From the IMG/VR virus record IMGVR_UViG_3300045988_083838, positions 1 through 55,308 of that record: a stretch of DNA of 55,308 bases; one strand, given 5' to 3'. Made by a program: the position numbers and the translations under genes. Every line of letters begins with the position of its first letter. The stretch's first letter is position 1. Below, piece after piece: positions 24,583-34,742 of the stretch. Origin of the DNA: a virus. Under the pieces are notes generated by a model. The model saw only the letters and a list, made by a program, of their open reading frames with translations, was not told the origin of the DNA and did no database searches.

Positions 24583-24872
24583 AGCGAGGTATGACGGACT
24601 ACCTTATATCCAAGTAATTAGTAAGAACAGTAAATGAACCTAGGATAGTCTACTTAGTATGAAAATTATAGCTCCGATCGTAATCTATATTAGAGAAATT
24701 ATGAAATCAAAGCATTCGAGAAGAATGCAAACTCGACATTATGAAGAAATCTTAAACGTGATAAAAACGGCTTCTAAAGGTATACCAACAAACACCATCT
24801 ATAATGTGAAGGATGGCATAAATGTTGCTTTGATTGCAATTTCATAAAAGTACCTAATATAGATTATATCAT

Positions 24873-24944
24873 AGCCCTATCGTCAAAAGGTAAGGCACAG
24901 GAATTTGACTCCTGTATTTGTTGGTTCGAATCCAACTAGGGCTG
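24873..24944 (+). tRNA. tRNA-Gln (anticodon TTG)
   Basis: Hand-folded cloverleaf: acceptor agcccta / tagggct, anticodon stem cagga / tcctg, loop aTTTGac, T-arm gttgg-TTCGAAT-ccaac. 72 nt. Confidence 0.85.
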
Positions 24945-25012
24945 TTAATGGTGTGGATAGCACCTAAGGTTGATTCCGAATCCGTTATGCTATCATAACT
25001 CACGCCATTTAA

Positions 25013-25085
25013 GGACATATAGTTCAATGGTTAGAGCAACCGCCTCATAAGCGGTAAGTTGTAGGTTCAAGTCCTACTATGTCCA
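25013..25085 (+). tRNA. tRNA-Met (anticodon CAT; elongator type, or Ile2 if lysidinylated)
   Basis: Acceptor ggacata / tatgtcc, D-arm gttc-aatggtta-gagc, anticodon stem accgc / gcggt, loop ctCATaa, T-arm gtagg-TTCAAGT-cctac. Confidence 0.9.
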
Positions 25086-25176
25086 TAATCCTGGCAGACA
25101 AAAAGATAAAAGCAACACTACGGAAAAATGGGTTGATTGGGATATGACAGAAATAATGCTGGGAATACTGTCAAAT

Positions 25177-25248
25177 GGAAAAGTTAGTATAAATGGCAAG
25201 TGCATGTATCAGCTGGCAAGGCAGAGGTTCGATTCCTCTACTTTTCCA
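25177..25248 (+). ncRNA. tRNA-like acceptor/T-arm minihelix without a foldable anticodon arm (pseudo-tRNA?)
   Basis: Acceptor ggaaaag / cttttcc, extendable to 11 bp (aatggaaaagt / acttttccatt). Canonical T-arm agagg-TTCGATT-cctct. I could not fold the internal 38 nt into D and anticodon arms. Confidence 0.4.
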
Positions 25249-25252
25249 TTAA

Positions 25253-25326
25253 GGAAGATTAGTTCAGCGGGCGAGAATATCCGGCTAATAACCGGAAAGC
25301 CGTAGGTTTGAATCCTACATCTTCCA
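25253..25326 (+). tRNA. tRNA with anticodon AAT (nominally Ile; unusual A34)
   Basis: Clean cloverleaf: acceptor ggaagat / atcttcc, D-arm gttc-agcgggcga-gaat, anticodon stem tccgg / ccgga, loop ctAATaa, T-arm gtagg-TTTGAAT-cctac. 74 nt. Confidence 0.8.
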
Positions 25327-25548
25327 CTCGTAGAATATACCTTCTACTAAAAGTCAACTTGTTTATTCTTTTCTTAATGACTCAAAATTAAAGAAAAAGG
25401 ACGTTATGAATGCAAAGCCGGTTTTTCGATAAAATCCTTAGAAGTTGGAAGATAGATAGTATATGTTAATGGGTCTATCATGGTCGTTCTGTGGTTGTTC
25501 GATCAAAAACTAAAACAACTAACACCAATAAGAAAGGAAAAAGAAAGT

Positions 25549-28745: not shown

Positions 28746-28774
28746 TTGAAATCTTCATTTTTATGTGTTACAAT
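28746..28774 (+). promoter_or_regulatory. Sigma-A-type promoter (cassette variant) of the DNA-modification operon
   Basis: TTGAAA, 17 nt, TGtTACAAT. Confidence 0.75.
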
Positions 28775-28822
28775 ATAATAGAAGTTAATAGATAAGCAAA
28801 AATATAAAGGAGGTAACGTAAT

Positions 28823-29170
28823 ATGTTCATGGTATCAAGTGTTTCTTATTTCGATTTTATACACAGATACAAAGATGCACCTAAGGAGGTGAATTATTTA
28901 GCTAATTTGCATCGTCATTTGCTCAATATTGAAACGACTGTAGAAGTATTTAATACAGACCGAGAAATAGAGTTTTATATGATGAAGGATAAAATTGACG
29001 ATGCGCTGAAGAAACATAAATTTGACGAAAATGCTAGTTGTGAAGATGTCTGTGTATTTGTTATGGATGTCGTAACCGAATCTTATGGTGTTCATAGATA
29101 CCGCAAGGTTAAGGTGCAAGAAGATAATAACGGATTTGCAACATTGATAAAGGAGGCTAACGAAGAATGA
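28823..29170 (+). CDS. Divergent T-fold / QueD (PTPS)-like paralogue lacking the catalytic Cys
   Basis: FIHRY..NLHRHLLNIETTVEV..REIEFYMMKDKI aligns with QueD at 31693 (GAHQL..KLHGHNWIITVYC..GMIVDFTKIKKEI). The three His are kept and the Cys is replaced. Confidence 0.55.
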   Translation: MFMVSSVSYFDFIHRYKDAPKEVNYLANLHRHLLNIETTVEVFNTDREIEFYMMKDKIDDALKKHKFDENASCEDVCVFVMDVVTESYGVHRYRKVKVQEDNNGFATLIKEANEE

Positions 29171-29637
29171 GAATATGGGTAGGAAAGGAACAGGAGGGAC
29201 GTTATAAAGGTATTTATACGATGTTCGTCGAAAGTAACAAGATAAATATGTGTACTTTAAGAATTATAATAGATACCCTCAAAGATTATCCTACAATTAG
29301 TGCACTATACTTCGGTGCCGGCAGAAAAAATGTGCGCACCATATCTAAAGATTGTATTGATATGTTAAAAGACTTAAGAAAGAAATATATATTATCAATA
29401 GAATTTGATAAATATGGCACTGATGCACCAAATTTATTTGAATTTGATAATAATATATTTAGAACGATGTGTGAGCCCTTAAATTACAATAATGTATCTA
29501 TAAAGATCGATACGAATAAAGACGTGTTTTCTCAATCTATTGAATGCATGTTCAAGACCAATTTAAAGGAGTTGGATGATTTCAGATTTGTTGGAACCGA
29601 TAAACTTGTATATAAAAGTATTAAGGAGGAAGATTGA
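29167..29637 (+). CDS. Hypothetical protein (orphan within the modification operon)
   Basis: 156-aa ORF. Its start overlaps the upstream stop (ATGA). I recognise no motif. Confidence 0.65.
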   Translation: MRIWVGKEQEGRYKGIYTMFVESNKINMCTLRIIIDTLKDYPTISALYFGAGRKNVRTISKDCIDMLKDLRKKYILSIEFDKYGTDAPNLFEFDNNIFRTMCEPLNYNNVSIKIDTNKDVFSQSIECMFKTNLKELDDFRFVGTDKLVYKSIKEED

Positions 29638-29638
29638 T

Positions 29639-30757
29639 ATGTTATACTATTTACCGTTGGAGCCATATATTGAAAGATATACTTATTTAATGTCTGCTAA
29701 AGACGGATGGGCAGAGGAAAATTTCAAAAGATATAATGTACCTTTCGTAAGAGTGGATGGAAAGAGCTTAGGAAATACAATCAAAACTGGTGTTGTATTA
29801 GATGCTTGTGGCAGAAGTTATTATGCGCTGTCTCAAATTCAGCAACTTATAAATTTAATAAATGATGGAAAGGTTAAAGATAATGATGTAATATATGTGG
29901 AAGATTTTTGGCACCCTGGCATTGAAAGTTTATTTTATATTAGACATCTTTGTGGAATCAATTTCAAAATAGGAACCTTTATTCATGCACAGTCAGTAGA
30001 TGACACAGATTTTTCTTATGCTATGAGATATTGGATGCGCCCTATTGAAACAGGTTTTGGAAGACAATATGATTTCATATTTACATGCTCTGATATTCTT
30101 AGAAATTTGTGTCTAGACTCTGGTATTACAACACCTGAAAGAATACACACAGTAGGACTTCCTTATAACTCTGCTGTACTTCTTAAACAGATAGAAGACA
30201 TGGGATTCGTTGGAATGAATTGTAAGAAAGAGGACTATGTATTGTTTTCCTCTAGATTTGATGATGAGAAGGACCCAATGTTTTTCTTAGATTTGGTAGA
30301 AGCTTGTCCAAATGTAGAATTTCGCCTTGTAAACCCAAGAAAGGACAGACCTATAACTTCTAATAAGAAAGTTATAGACAGGCTGAATAACACATTAAAG
30401 ACTTGTTCAAATTTTAAGATTATTGAGACTTATGATAAGATTTCTTATTATAATGCACTTGCAAAAGCAAAGATAGTATTTAATTGTGCTAATCAGGATT
30501 GGGTGAGCTGGACATTATTGGAGGCGGTTACGTTCAAGTGTTTACCTTTATATCCTGTATGGAAAGATTTTCCTTTAGAACTTAATTATGATAATAGATT
30601 TCTATATCAGAAAAGAAATCTTAATGATTGTATAGCTAAATTAACAAAATTGTTAAAAACTGATTTCAACGATGTATCTGTAGATTTAGATTGCATAATC
30701 AATAAACATGATGCTAGTTGGAAGAAATTTTTACAGATAATGGGGGAAATTAACTGA
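29639..30757 (+). CDS. GT-B fold glycosyltransferase-like protein
   Basis: The ATG at 29639 follows aaggagga. Two Rossmann-like halves. The C-terminal VSWTLLEAVTFKCLPLYP resembles the GT4/GT1 donor-binding motif (fG..llEAma.G.Pvi). Confidence 0.55.
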   Translation: MLYYLPLEPYIERYTYLMSAKDGWAEENFKRYNVPFVRVDGKSLGNTIKTGVVLDACGRSYYALSQIQQLINLINDGKVKDNDVIYVEDFWHPGIESLFYIRHLCGINFKIGTFIHAQSVDDTDFSYAMRYWMRPIETGFGRQYDFIFTCSDILRNLCLDSGITTPERIHTVGLPYNSAVLLKQIEDMGFVGMNCKKEDYVLFSSRFDDEKDPMFFLDLVEACPNVEFRLVNPRKDRPITSNKKVIDRLNNTLKTCSNFKIIETYDKISYYNALAKAKIVFNCANQDWVSWTLLEAVTFKCLPLYPVWKDFPLELNYDNRFLYQKRNLNDCIAKLTKLLKTDFNDVSVDLDCIINKHDASWKKFLQIMGEIN

Positions 30758-31671
30758 TGTCTTTTAACTTATATTTTGCAGGACAGCAAGCTAAAGAAGT
30801 TGACCAGTATATTATCAAGAAAAAATGTTGTAGATTATTTTCTCAATCTAATGAACGTAAAGGAATACTAGAGTATTGTTCTTTGTGTAGAAAGAGTAGA
30901 CCTAAACTGCTTGTAGATAGTGGAGCATTTTCAGTAGCACATTCAGGTAAATCTGTAGATATCGACCAATATATAGATTTTATAAATGAAAACGATGACG
31001 GGGTAACCGCTTGGGTTGAGTTGGATTCTATTCCGTTTCCTGTTTTAAATTCTACGACAGCGAAGAAGTGCTCTGAAGAGTCCTGGCAGTCTTATCTTTA
31101 TATGTTATCAAAAGTTAAAAGTCCGGAAAAACTTATTCCGATTTATCATTTTGGTGAACCTAAAGAAAATCTAAGAAGAATACTCAATACAGAACACGAA
31201 ATACTTGATTGGAAACCTGCTCCTTATATTGGAGTAGGTGGACGTCACGGCGTTTCTACTCAAGAACAACTACATTATTTCGACGATGTATTTAAGATTG
31301 TTAAAGCAAGTAAAAATCCAAATGTTAAGATTCATGCATTTGGAATGACTGTATTAACATTATTAGAACAGTTTCCTTTTTATAGCGCAGACTCGACAAC
31401 ATGGCTCCAACTAGGCATCAATGGAAATATAATAACAGAACATGGAATATTCGTCGTTAGTGATAGAAATAAAACATCAAATAATATTCTAAATCAACAT
31501 GATAAATGCAGAAAAATAGTTGAAAAAGATATAGGTAAATTTGGTTATACATTGGAAGAAGTAAGCACTGATTACAAGAAAAGACTTATGTGCAACATAG
31601 ATTTCTTTCAGGACTGGGCAGATAATTATAAATATAAGCCATTAAGCGTTCGTAGAAGACGCCTAATATAA
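30757..31671 (+). CDS. dpdA: DpdA-type DNA-guanine transglycosylase (TGT-like)
   Basis: LLVDSGAFS, IGVGGRHG, IHAFGMT and ADSTTW match the bacterial and phage DpdA blocks (ALDSGGF, IGVGSVC, LHGFG, ADSMAW). Confidence 0.8.
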   Translation: MSFNLYFAGQQAKEVDQYIIKKKCCRLFSQSNERKGILEYCSLCRKSRPKLLVDSGAFSVAHSGKSVDIDQYIDFINENDDGVTAWVELDSIPFPVLNSTTAKKCSEESWQSYLYMLSKVKSPEKLIPIYHFGEPKENLRRILNTEHEILDWKPAPYIGVGGRHGVSTQEQLHYFDDVFKIVKASKNPNVKIHAFGMTVLTLLEQFPFYSADSTTWLQLGINGNIITEHGIFVVSDRNKTSNNILNQHDKCRKIVEKDIGKFGYTLEEVSTDYKKRLMCNIDFFQDWADNYKYKPLSVRRRRLI

Positions 31672-31692
31672 TTAAAAGGAGGATTAAAAAAT

Positions 31693-32046
31693 ATGTATTA
31701 TGTATCAAAAAGAATGGAAATAGCAGGAGCCCATCAGTTAAAGTTACCTTATGATAGTAAGTGTGAGAAACTACATGGGCATAATTGGATAATTACTGTT
31801 TATTGTAAATCAGACAAGCTCACTGATTATGGGATGATTGTAGATTTTACAAAGATCAAGAAAGAGATACATGACAAGCTAGATCATTCTTGTATAAATG
31901 ATGTTGTGTACCCGCTCAATCCCACCGCCGAGAACATGGCAAGATGGATATGTAAAAGAGTTTCAGATATTTGTGAAGTTGGAGTGTGTTATAAGGTAGA
32001 AGTACAAGAAAGCGAAGGAAATATTGCTACCTATGTGGAGGATTAA
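31693..32046 (+). CDS. queD: 6-carboxy-5,6,7,8-tetrahydropterin synthase
   Basis: CEKLHGHNW, GMIVDF, 117 aa. Confidence 0.9.
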   Translation: MYYVSKRMEIAGAHQLKLPYDSKCEKLHGHNWIITVYCKSDKLTDYGMIVDFTKIKKEIHDKLDHSCINDVVYPLNPTAENMARWICKRVSDICEVGVCYKVEVQESEGNIATYVED

Positions 32047-32048
32047 AT

Positions 32049-32693
32049 ATGAAAGTAGTAGAAATATTTAAAAGTATTGACGGTGAGGGTAAGCGGGCAG
32101 GCTTACCTACCACATTCATAAGATTATTTGGGTGCAATTTGAATTGCTCTTATTGTGATACAAGATATGGTTGTGAAGGAGAAGGATATTCAATCATGAG
32201 TATTCTACAGATTGTCAGTGCAGTGGAAAGATGTGGTATTCATTCAGTGACAATAACTGGCGGAGAACCTCTTGTACACCCAGGCATTGATAAACTTGTT
32301 CATATATTATTAGAAAAAGGTTATTGGGTAAATATTGAGACTAATGGCTCGCAGTACATTGGAAAATTTCCATCAAGCCCTCTTTTATTCTTTACAATGG
32401 ACTATAAATGCCCGTCGAGTGGCATGGAAAATCATATGGATTGTCGTAACTTTGAATTACTATTCAAAAATGATGTGCTTAAATTTGTTGTAGGTAGTCA
32501 GGAAGATTTGAATAAAGCGTTACAGGTTATTGAGAAATATAATCCGCAGGCACAGATATATTTTAGCCCAGTATTTGGTGAAATTGAACCTTCCGAAATT
32601 GTTGATTTCATTTTAGATAAGAAATTGGATAATTGTAAGGTACAGTTGCAAATGCATAAGATAATTTGGGAACCAAATAAGAGAGGAGTATAA
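32049..32693 (+). CDS. queE: 7-carboxy-7-deazaguanine synthase (radical SAM)
   Basis: [31 protein letters not shown]. Confidence 0.9.
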
Positions 32694-32694
32694 A

Positions 32695-33267
32695 ATGATA
32701 GATAAGAAAAGAATTGAAAATGCAGTAAAAGAAATCTTAATTGCTTTAGGAGATAATCCAGATAGACCAGGACTTGTAGATACACCTCATAGAGTAGCTA
32801 AGATGTATGAAGAAGTATTTGAAGGAATGAATTACACGAACGAGGAGATTGCAGAAAAATTCTGTAAATGTTTTGATACAAATAATAATGATCTTGTTGT
32901 TGTAAAGGATATTCCAATCTTCAGTTATTGTGAACATCATTTAGCTTTGATGTATAATATGAGTGTGTCTATTGCGTATATCCCAAATGGAAAGGTATTA
33001 GGACTGAGTAAGTTCGCTCGAATTGCGGATATGGTTGGAAAGCGTTTACAGCTTCAGGAAAGAATAGGTTCCGATATAGCGGATATTATCCAGCTGGCTA
33101 CAGATTCTCAGGATGTGCTTGTTCTTGTTGAGGGGGAGCATAGTTGTATGACAGCAAGAGGTATTAAGAGTCGAGGAGCTAAAACAAGAACCGCGACAAT
33201 TCGTGGATTATTTGAGTCTAATGTAGAGCTTCGTAAAGAAGCATACTCTTTAATGAGTTTGAAATAA
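32695..33267 (+). CDS. folE: GTP cyclohydrolase I
   Basis: [50 protein letters not shown]. Confidence 0.95.
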
Positions 33268-33281
33268 AGGAGGATTAAAAA

Positions 33282-34376
33282 ATGAAAGTAGTAACAAGCA
33301 GAATGAAAGAAGCAGTAAATAAGGCAATTAAGGGAGCCGGATTTAATAATCTTATTCCTATTACATCAATGATAGGTATTAAATTATCAGATGGAAAATT
33401 GAGATTGCTTACAACAGATATGACTAATACATTATGTATTATCATTGACAAAGTAGCTGGGGATGATATGGACATCACAGTAGATGCCGATAAGTTTGGA
33501 AAGCTGATTGCAAAGACAACTTCGGAAGATATTGACTTGTCTGTAAAGGATGATGTTCTTTTTGTAAAAGCAAACGGAACTTATAAGATACCATTGATTT
33601 CAGACGAGGAAGGACTTATCTCATTCCCAGATATTAAGCCAATGGACGATAAAAATGTACAGTGTTCAACCAAACTTTCAAGTGTTATGCAGGCTTATAA
33701 TATCAATAAGTCAGCTCTTGCAAAAACATTAGAAAATCCTGCATTGACCGGTTACTATTGTGGAGATACTGTTATCACAACTGATGCAAATGTAATCACA
33801 TTCAATGGCTTTAAGATGTTTGATAATGACGAACCTATTCTTATTTCTGCCCAGCAGATGCAGTTATTGACACTGAATACAAAGGAAGATATTGAAGTAT
33901 ATATCGGAAAAACAGGTATTCAGTTCGTAACAGAAGATGTGGTTATTGATGGGGCATTGATGGAAGGAATTGAAGATTTCCCTGCAAATGAAGTAAACGC
34001 ATATCTTGATGAAGCATTTACGTCTTCTTGTAAAGTACCAAAGGACTTACTTCTTTCCGTGCTTGATCGTCTTGCATTATTCATTGAACCATATGACAAG
34101 AATGGAGCATATTTCACATTTGGAAGAAAGGGAATCAATATTCACAGTAAAAAGGACGCATCTACAGAAACCATCAACTATGTGGAAAGTAAGGACTTTG
34201 CTCCGTTTGTATGTTGTGTAGATATTCCAATGTTAAAGGAGCAGTTGCAGGCTAATCCGGATGATACAGTGAAGATCTGTTACGGAAATGAAAATGCATT
34301 GAAGATTGAGAGTGGAAAAGTAACACAGGTTATAGCTCTACTTGAAGATGAAGAACTTGACAATATGACAGAATAA
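33282..34376 (+). CDS. dnaN: DNA polymerase sliding clamp (DnaN/beta-like)
   Basis: 364 aa. The N-terminus has beta-clamp-like architecture (LRLLTTDMTNTL..., three repeated domains by length). It co-occurs with clamp-loader genes. Confidence 0.7.
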   Translation: MKVVTSRMKEAVNKAIKGAGFNNLIPITSMIGIKLSDGKLRLLTTDMTNTLCIIIDKVAGDDMDITVDADKFGKLIAKTTSEDIDLSVKDDVLFVKANGTYKIPLISDEEGLISFPDIKPMDDKNVQCSTKLSSVMQAYNINKSALAKTLENPALTGYYCGDTVITTDANVITFNGFKMFDNDEPILISAQQMQLLTLNTKEDIEVYIGKTGIQFVTEDVVIDGALMEGIEDFPANEVNAYLDEAFTSSCKVPKDLLLSVLDRLALFIEPYDKNGAYFTFGRKGINIHSKKDASTETINYVESKDFAPFVCCVDIPMLKEQLQANPDDTVKICYGNENALKIESGKVTQVIALLEDEELDNMTE

Positions 34377-34428
34377 TTATATAATATAAAAGTGTTGATT
34401 CCATTGGCATTGGACGATTAATATTATT

Positions 34429-34460
34429 AGATGGTTAGTTTTTAACTAACCATCTTTTTT
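34429..34460 (+). terminator. Rho-independent terminator
   Basis: 12-bp stem (agatggttagtt / aactaaccatct), then tttttt. Confidence 0.85.
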
Positions 34461-34550: not shown

Positions 34551-34742
34551 ATGAAAAGAGCAAATACAGTGCAGGAAAGAAGACAGGAATGGAAAGATAA
34601 ATATTTTAATAAATATTCAAATGATGTTACTAGATTAATTGTTTTACAAAAACAGAGCGAACAACTCAGGGAAGAGTTAGAGGTATTAAAAAAGAAAAAC
34701 GAAGAACTTCGTAAGAAGTTAGATTTATTAAGAAATAATTAA
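34551..34742 (+). CDS. Small coiled-coil protein
   Basis: 63 aa, RBS aaaggagga, charged heptads. Confidence 0.55.
   Translation: MKRANTVQERRQEWKDKYFNKYSNDVTRLIVLQKQSEQLREELEVLKKKNEELRKKLDLLRNN

Follow-up and report, generated by a model that had tools for sequence, protein, structure and literature searches.

The virus record IMGVR_UViG_3300045988_083838 of the IMG/VR database, analysed here over its whole length of 55,308 nucleotides (the window), contains seven co-directional genes on the + strand (28823-33267) that encode, in order, p1, p2, p3, DpdA, QueD, QueE and FolE; a gene for a DnaN-like sliding clamp comes next. In our estimate there is about an even chance that these genes form a QueC-less, DpdL-type operon for DNA-guanine hypermodification that has been extended by a glycosyltransferase module. 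The genes, and the signal-like sites on either side of them, are as follows (CDG, 7-carboxy-7-deazaguanine).

28746-28774, +: promoter-like site TTGAAA-17-TACAAT with a TG extension, from a consensus scan; 96-nt gap after the PolA gene
28823-29170, +: p1, DpdL-family T-fold protein, 115 amino acids
29167-29637, +: p2, uncharacterised phage family of about 150 amino acids; 156 amino acids
29639-30757, +: p3, GT4-family (GT-B, retaining-type) glycosyltransferase by predicted fold, 372 amino acids
30757-31671, +: DpdA, DNA guanine transglycosylase of the 9g/Dp-1 type (DpdA1-like)
31693-32046, +: QueD (CPH4 synthase), with an intact C24xxxH28GH30
32049-32693, +: QueE (radical-SAM CDG synthase, clostridial type), with C29xxxC33xxC36
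32695-33267, +: FolE, GTP cyclohydrolase I
33282-34376, +: DnaN-like sliding clamp (Pfam: DNA_pol3_beta, 1e-4)
34429-34455, +: intrinsic-terminator-like hairpin, 12-bp stem and T run, ending the unit

An earlier reading of this DNA (the sequence-only reading) had given the same gene order and coordinates, and all seven open reading frames (ORFs) are found where it placed them. The genes for p1 and p2 overlap by 4 nt (ATGA), those for p2 and p3 are separated by 1 nt, and those for p3 and DpdA overlap by 1 nt (TGATG), the stop codon of p3 lying on the start codon of DpdA. The start codon that gives p3 its 372 amino acids agrees with homologues of 364-375 amino acids, which cover 100% of the protein, and the start codon of p2 agrees with a conserved N-terminus (MRIW.GKE.EGRY).

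The core enzymes and the absence of QueC and QueF

QueD, QueE and FolE all pass the Pfam thresholds. QueD matches PTPS (4.7e-29) and also TIGR03367 (5.9e-25), in the latter case with 87.5 bits, just under the cut-off of 89.25. QueE matches the Pfam domain Radical_SAM and the clostridial-type family TIGR03963 (273 bits against a cut-off of 260), and FolE has a Pfam match at 4.5e-64 and passes the NCBIfam cut-off for NF006826 with 245 bits. DpdA matches phrog_887 (2e-44) and has no match to the Pfam family TGT at E ≤ 1. The closest relatives by tblastn are encoded in Bacillus phage Flasso (41% identity), Streptococcus phage Dp-1 (38%) and phage 9g (30%), with E-values of 7e-58 for the Dp-1 DpdA and 8e-21 for the 9g DpdA. 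Dp-1 has been grouped with phages that encode homologues of the 9g DpdA or of the nt-1 DpdA2 (Hutinet 2019; PMC6884629); we place the DpdA of the window in the 9g type because it matches the 9g DpdA directly.

The sequence-only reading had reported neither QueC nor QueF, and several searches bear it out. Neither protein is among the families listed by Pfam for another 59 ORFs of the + strand (25 of 29 families in one of the scans), six-frame hidden Markov model (HMM) searches and tblastn with the QueC and QueF of Dp-1 and Flasso gave nothing better than E 4 over the 55-kb contig, and the SGGxDS motif is absent from every frame of the contig. With QueC absent, no preQ0 would be made.

p1 and the DpdL family

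The first protein of the operon had been described as a QueD paralogue that has lost its catalytic Cys and keeps H14, H30 and H32. The sequence agrees: p1 reads L26-A-N-L-H30-R31-H32-L33-L34, in addition to H14, with a Leu at the position of the QueD catalytic Cys, while the true QueD of the operon keeps C24-EKL-H28-G-H30. DpdL was defined as a QueD paralogue in which CxxxHGH has become LxxxHRHxF, and it is found in phages that have DpdA, FolE, QueD and QueE but not QueC (Cui et al. 2023; PMC10516641). The context of p1, with DpdA, FolE, QueD and QueE and without QueC, fits this description, and p1 departs from the DpdL signature at the last position only (Leu for Phe). It matches the DpdL of Cellulophaga phage phiST (CGPG_00067; BLASTP, E 2e-8), the DpdL of phage ACP17 (tblastn, 2e-5) and phrog_17812 (3e-11), besides a weak QueD-like PHROG match. 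By sequence, p1 belongs to the DpdL family and is a predicted CDG decarboxylase.

This assignment changes the expected end of the pathway. DpdL has been proposed to decarboxylate CDG, giving 2'-deoxy-7-deazaguanosine (dDG); in phiST DNA no dG signal was detected, the non-canonical nucleoside present was dDG and CDG went undetected, and dDG is the sole product shown for a DpdL phage (PMC10516641). Since p1 is a DpdL as published, the QueC-less layout around DpdA is of a known kind, and the precedent for it is dDG, not CDG. The sequence-only reading had let the pathway stop at CDG. Taken literally, this means that DpdA inserts CDG into DNA (as dCDG) and that DpdL and p2 are inactive paralogues, a reading that is no longer the default and that we consider improbable. 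It can draw on the natural occurrence of dCDG in Sulfolobus virus STSV-2 (PMC10516641), on the status of the DpdL decarboxylase role as a proposal and on the CDG carboxylate, which could take a glycosyl ester; the phiST nucleosides speak against it, and so does DpdL itself, which is present with intact metal ligands in 49 of the 81 loci surveyed below.

Two further observations concern the distribution and architecture of DpdL. Faecalibacterium phage Roos has only DpdL, DpdA and YhhQ (L012 8890-10854), and loci L017, L018, L021-L024, L028 and L034 likewise pair DpdL with a YhhQ-type precursor transporter and lack nearby genes for FolE, QueD and QueE. In Vibrio phage Bakedbeans, gp176 (L014 8212-9363) is a 383 amino acid long ORF with a C-terminal DpdL behind an unidentified N-terminal region of approximately 260 amino acids.

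The glycosyltransferase-like protein p3

p3 has 373 metagenomic homologues. Its AlphaFold2 (AF2) model, built with 36 homologues (pLDDT 95.4, pTM 0.91), consists of two Rossmann-like domains in a GT-B arrangement. Foldseek matches it to PglA, MshA, BshA and PimA at E-values of 1e-12 to 1e-10 (probability 1.00), and against BFVD the second-best structural match is the glycosyltransferase of ACP17 (TM score approximately 0.8). The structural neighbours are generic GT4 enzymes, TarM, GtfA and PglA among them. We are confident, from the model, that p3 has a GT4-family fold (it and its homologues are called GT4 below), in line with the GT-B-like protein of the sequence-only reading.

The conservation within the family suggests more than a shared fold. 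In an alignment of the family profile with PglH/WlaC, the GRLxxxK motif is matched by R206-x4-K211 and the EX7E motif by D287-x7-E295. All 60 homologues compared, at identities down to 22%, keep R206, E210, K211, P213 and E295, and position 287 is Asp in 55 of them and Glu in the other 5. In the N-terminal (acceptor) domain, E8, R13, D89, D124 and E137 are kept wherever a homologue has a residue at that position. p3 is apparently an active nucleotide-sugar enzyme, as the invariance of its donor-site motifs over such distances favours catalysis over a scaffolding role. The family is acidic (median pI 5.6), which hints, softly, at a small-molecule acceptor and not DNA.

Linkage of GT4 to DpdA across phages

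A scan of IMG/VR with the family alignment gave 72 loci, which we annotated, together with loci from GenBank, with local HMMs; 81 loci with GT4 are counted here. Many of these contigs are truncated, and the counts are lower bounds. DpdA is present in 78 of the 81 loci, in 66 within 200 nt of GT4, and the linked DpdA proteins belong to three different subtypes. No QueC was annotated in any of the 81. p2 lies immediately upstream of GT4 in 44. The supply of the base comes from FolE, QueD and QueE, from YhhQ-type queuosine-precursor transporters (TIGR00697), or from both. The idea that the extra genes belong with DpdA, put forward from the window alone, is well supported by this co-occurrence.

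The carriers of the module include human-gut siphoviruses, marine and freshwater phages, the cyanophage BUCT-ZZ01, large phages of Xanthomonas and Burkholderia, and the jumbo phage PA5oct, the DNA of which resists restriction enzymes that cut at G sites. Near-identical operons are present in human-gut metagenomes, and none of 50,697 phage records matched the operon in a megablast search. By tblastn and inspection of neighbourhoods, unrelated cultured carriers of GT4 are ACP17, PA5oct, BUCT-ZZ01, BUDD, BCSR5 and Phosso, with the following clusters in five of them.

ACP17: DpdA, GT4, DpdL, QueE
PA5oct: DpdA, GT4, DpdL
BUCT-ZZ01: DpdA, DpdL, GT4
BUDD: p2-like, GT4, DpdA, DpdL, QueE
Phosso: DpdL, GT4

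ACP17 is the second DpdL phage of PMC10516641, and its GT4 lies between DpdA and DpdL. In a search of one genome each for 185,579 species, only 7 GT4 loci were found, all on contigs of metagenome-assembled genomes and 6 of the 7 with a like cluster. The GT4 family is almost absent from cellular genomes.

These distributions bear on the possibility that GT4 acts elsewhere, be it on a polymer of the cell wall, a protein of the phage or its host, or a different base in DNA, and merely shares an early replication operon with DpdA. Phage replication modules often contain unrelated early genes, and the generic character of the structural neighbours (TarM, GtfA, PglA) would suit such a role. We give it little credence, given that the association with DpdA is seen in phages of unrelated lineages and with DpdA proteins of three subtypes, and that the family is so rare in cells. 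The Pfam scans of the 59 ORFs gave no hydroxymethylase-like or thymidylate-synthase-like family among the matches listed, hence no hydroxymethylcytosine or hydroxymethyluracil (hmC/hmU) acceptor; glucosylation of hmC/hmU in the manner of T4 was rejected on the same ground. A pterin-glycoside pathway was also considered, BGluT (5ze7) being among the Foldseek matches of p3, and is unlikely because GT4 adjoins DpdA even in loci without FolE, QueD and QueE.

Some clusters contain further genes, among them those for a GalE-like epimerase/dehydratase (1.5e-49), a cytidylyltransferase-like protein, a PIG-L-like deacetylase below threshold and PAPS-reductase-type (PP-loop) proteins. In L003, L021 and L023 a second gene beside GT4 looks GT2-type by its DDD motif alone and has no Pfam match. 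Clustering of 701 neighbouring ORFs revealed as additional partners only replication genes and a recurrent HPRT-like phosphoribosyltransferase (13 loci). The latter is found in L001, L010, L044, L051, L053, L065, L067, L068, L074, L075, L078, L082 and L086, PA5oct and BUCT-ZZ01 included, and might salvage the guanine that DpdA sets free or, by analogy with tubercidin biosynthesis, produce a nucleotide of deazaguanine.

In Burkholderia phage BCSR5 (L009 4233-6510) and Xanthomonas phage BUDD (L002 5374-6523), genes for an AAA_28 kinase-like protein, a PP-loop/PAPS-reductase-like protein (HSGGKDS) and a PIG-L/LmbE-like protein (APHVDDE; PIG-L score under the cut-off) lie directly upstream of p2, GT4 and DpdA. 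The PIG-L/LmbE-like genes recall, as an analogy, the logic of MshA/MshB and BshA/BshB, in which transfer of GlcNAc is followed by deacetylation. Locus L003 (5903-10725; ENA XIEF21 scaffold_154), whose GT4 is 65% identical, has two YhhQ-type transporters and no FolE, QueD, QueE or DpdL. Its genes for DpdA, p2, GT4, the GT2-like protein and YhhQ contain 1-8 in-frame TAG codons each and end in TAA or TGA, and from this codon pattern we read L003 as a TAG-recoded phage.

The small companion protein p2

The sequence-only reading had treated p2 as an orphan, which it is not. A word search finds 9 close homologues, and an exhaustive profile search (E ≤ 1e-3) extends the family to at least 239 clusters at 50% identity. 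Nearly all members are standalone proteins of 140-180 amino acids, and in an alignment of 83 sequences G6, E10, F20, Y48, G50, E79, K113 and D145 are invariant. The gene is usually found just upstream of the GT4 gene. A p2-family HMM trained without fusions matches the C-terminal half of DpdL-containing ORFs in three loci (L032, L005 and L038; E 1e-5 to 1e-4), and DpdL and p2 are thus fused in some phages. The phiST gene between DpdL and DpdA (CGPG_00066) was considered as a p2 and rejected, as it encodes a P-loop kinase-like protein.

p2 has no match in Pfam, PHROG or NCBIfam; a Pfam scan of 83 family members gave scattered single chance matches only, and its profile matched PDB sequences at chance level only. 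The AF2 model has a pLDDT of 62, and Foldseek returned nothing at E < 0.25, its matches to Bacillus subtilis QueE being weak (probability 0.3-0.6). Profile-profile comparison gave a mixed result. In a first hhalign run p2 aligned with QueE at 81% probability (E 1.2e-5), against at most 1.2% for five unrelated controls; with other alignments the register was the same, but the probability was 7.6% and the E-value 0.0046. The N-terminal halves pair W.G.E.EG..G..T.FV with F.SIQGEG..G.P.FIR, YFGAG with ITGGEP and IE.S with IETNG, the CxxxCxxC segment being deleted, and E10, G50/G52 and E79 of p2 stand opposite the invariant E13, G71/G72 and E97 of QueE. p2 lacks the CxxxCxxC [4Fe-4S] motif, and its approximately 150 amino acids compare with approximately 210-250 for the full-length QueE barrel. 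We tentatively regard p2 as a QueE-derived domain without an Fe-S cluster; the link is only tentative because the two profile-profile runs differ in strength.

Comparison with known systems

phiST and the window both have FolE, QueD, QueE, DpdL (LxxxHRH) and DpdA and no QueC, and in both the cluster lies beside a DNA polymerase gene. phiST has neither GT4 nor p2; it carries MazG and the P-loop kinase-like gene instead, the latter between DpdL and DpdA3. The phiST transglycosylase is the distant DpdA3, whereas that of the window is of the 9g/Dp-1 type. The closest cultured DpdA proteins are those of Dp-1 and Flasso (38-41% identity), phages that have a backbone of clamp, Cas4-like nuclease and RecA in common with the window and their FolE, QueD and QueE genes in the same place. 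Where the window carries DpdL, p2 and GT4, however, these phages carry QueC and QueF, and Dp-1 DNA contains dPreQ1.

A precedent for the glycosylation of a free deazapurine comes from huimycin biosynthesis in Kutzneria albida, in which HuiG (KALB_4073), a glycosyltransferase with the GT4-type domain PF13439, attaches GlcNAc, donated by UDP-GlcNAc, to a 7-deazapurine as the free base. Like GT4 of the window, with which it is likened here by description only, HuiG is encoded with genes of the FolE/QueD/QueE type. Unlike it, HuiG serves secondary metabolism, has an O-methylated preQ0 aglycone (QueC-dependent) and comes from a cluster with no DpdA, and its product does not enter DNA. MshA and BshA, of the mycothiol and bacillithiol pathways and among the best structural matches to p3 (TM score 0.63-0.72), also have small-molecule acceptors; they share approximately 11-14% identity with p3, and the window lacks the thiol-pathway context. 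The sub-threshold PIG-L-like gene of BCSR5, two genes upstream of GT4, recalls MshB and BshB, and the window has no such gene. The α- and β-glucosyltransferases of T4 and their kin are phage GT-B enzymes that place sugars on DNA bases against restriction, as is proposed for GT4, but they need a hydroxymethyl pyrimidine and belong to other glycosyltransferase families.

A proposed route to a sugar-bearing 7-deazaguanine

It is tempting to assemble these genes into a single pathway. FolE, QueD and QueE would convert GTP to CDG, and DpdA would insert the finished free base into phage DNA in exchange for guanine; both steps follow from established pathway knowledge. DpdL, probably with p2, would process CDG, by analogy with phiST through decarboxylation to 7-deazaguanine (DG). 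GT4, translationally coupled to DpdA, may then glycosylate the deazaguanine from a nucleotide sugar, either before or after insertion. The virion DNA would accordingly contain a 7-deazaguanine with a sugar attached, and this base would block restriction. Transfer of the sugar to the free base, ahead of insertion, seems more likely than glycosylation in DNA, because the family is acidic, the acceptor domain is rich in conserved Asp and Glu residues, and HuiG offers a precedent.

Glycosylation is supported by the conserved GT4 motifs, the near-obligate linkage to DpdA, the sugar-nucleotide genes in some clusters, the HuiG precedent and the failure of a reconstitution that lacked GT4: when the DpdL and DpdA of ACP17 were expressed in Escherichia coli no dDG was made, and further enzymes may be required, as the authors proposed (PMC10516641). 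The more general proposition is that these phages replace guanine with a glycosylated 7-deazaguanine, that a phage-restricted GT4 cooperates closely with DpdA, and that degenerate paralogues of QueD (DpdL) and possibly of QueE (p2) were recruited as a CDG-processing pair. This would explain the G modification of PA5oct and the failed reconstitution with the ACP17 proteins; we rate it a little below an even call. That the operon makes a categorically new DNA base is likewise a tentative claim, one slightly more apt to fail than to hold.

A number of points weigh against the proposed pathway. The sugar-bearing base is predicted for the carrier phages from genes alone, and a decarboxylated DG has no hydroxyl or carboxyl for conventional O-glycosylation. 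The decorated deazaguanine of the sequence-only reading has gained comparative support, from linkage, motifs, sugar genes and HuiG, while its product stays a prediction and its acceptor atom is not obvious. The decarboxylase role of DpdL is a proposal even for the founding members (PMC10516641). In some relatives DpdL, p2, GT4 and DpdA are accompanied by a YhhQ-type precursor transporter alone, FolE, QueD and QueE being absent from the neighbourhood, and such salvage-only clusters are a poor fit with a DpdL that decarboxylates de novo CDG specifically. p3 scores under the Pfam glycosyltransferase cut-offs (Glyco_transf_4, 11.8 against 28.5 bits; Epimerase_2, 13.2 against 30.6), it has no match in NCBIfam, and a few of its homologues have precomputed matches to PF13524, PF00534 or PF13579. 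The argument from acidic pI for a small-molecule acceptor is soft, and the relation of p2 to QueE is weak and alignment-dependent.

A rival reading is a plain dDG system like that of phiST, in which GT4 and p2 have auxiliary roles (for example scaffolding or loading DpdA, enabling DpdL to act, or producing a transient intermediate) and the final base carries no sugar. dDG as the one demonstrated product of a DpdL phage, the want of an obvious acceptor on DG and the failure of DpdL and DpdA alone in E. coli all agree with it, and a complex of the GT4 and DpdA proteins would likewise account for genes that almost always adjoin and are translationally coupled. We nevertheless think it unlikely, if by no means far-fetched. 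The nucleotide-sugar motifs are invariant across the family, and some clusters carry sugar-nucleotide enzymes and the second, GT2-type-looking gene (by motif only). The comparison with phiST, which reaches dDG through DpdL without GT4 or p2, cuts both ways: it counts against a sugar as a part of DpdL chemistry and equally against a need for these two proteins in making dDG. The glycosylated product remains our preferred reading at the strengths given above.

Other features of the window

All gene-like ORFs of the contig with at least 60 amino acids are on the + strand. The replication module of the phage resembles those of Dp-1 and Flasso, and its lysin combines GH25 with CW_7. The clamp is the final gene ahead of the terminator, a position that it also has in Dp-1 and Flasso; it is an operon neighbour, outside the deazaguanine pathway. 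The single promoter-to-terminator unit of the sequence-only reading stands insofar as a signal is seen at each end (28746-28774 and 34429-34455), although both calls are consensus or pattern matches only; promoter-like sites near the operon number 39, against 33 expected from shuffles, and are not enriched.

A perfect sigma-70 consensus (TTGACA-17-TATAAT) lies over the clamp stop codon, approximately 40 nt upstream of the strong terminator. This promoter-terminator pair (34357-34455) could yield a small RNA of 60-70 nt; alternatively, it may be no more than an overlap of two signals. Ahead of the next gene, at 34551, there is another promoter-like site (TTGCAT ... TGTGTTACAAT). Pfam matches among the ORFs downstream of the operon (33282-54833) include a PemK/MazF-like toxin domain (7e-14) and a protein with sigma-70 region 2. 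No riboswitch was found in the window, nor any other Rfam family. Three tRNA genes (24872-25327) have the specificities Gln-TTG, Met-CAT and Ile-AAT; none is of the queuosine family (Asp, Asn, His, Tyr), which argues that DpdA is not there to modify phage tRNAs.

Novelty and significance

The sequence-only reading had offered this operon as a candidate new system. In part that claim falls, since the QueC-less, DpdL-type cluster is already known. The module DpdL-p2-GT4-DpdA is not described in PMC10516641, in which the word "glycosyltransferase" occurs zero times. The literature that we searched yielded no glycosyltransferase linked to DpdA or DpdL, no glycosylated deazaguanine in DNA and no purine or deazapurine glycosylation in DNA. 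The p2-GT4-DpdA extension, the DpdL-p2 fusions and the combination with a 9g/Dp-1-type DpdA are likewise not described there and look new. To our knowledge there are eight 7-deazaguanine bases of DNA, none of them sugar-bearing, and all known DNA glycosylation is on hydroxymethyl pyrimidines.

GT4 and p2 are concrete candidates for the further enzymes asked about in the 2023 DpdL paper (PMC10516641). Several carriers are in culture, so that the prediction is directly testable, and PA5oct is of therapeutic interest. If the proposed pathway is right, its product, a purine analogue with an attached sugar, would be without precedent in natural DNA and would define a new class of hypermodification, with consequences for restriction, for defences based on CRISPR or glycosylases, for artefacts in sequencing and for the enzymatic labelling of DNA.

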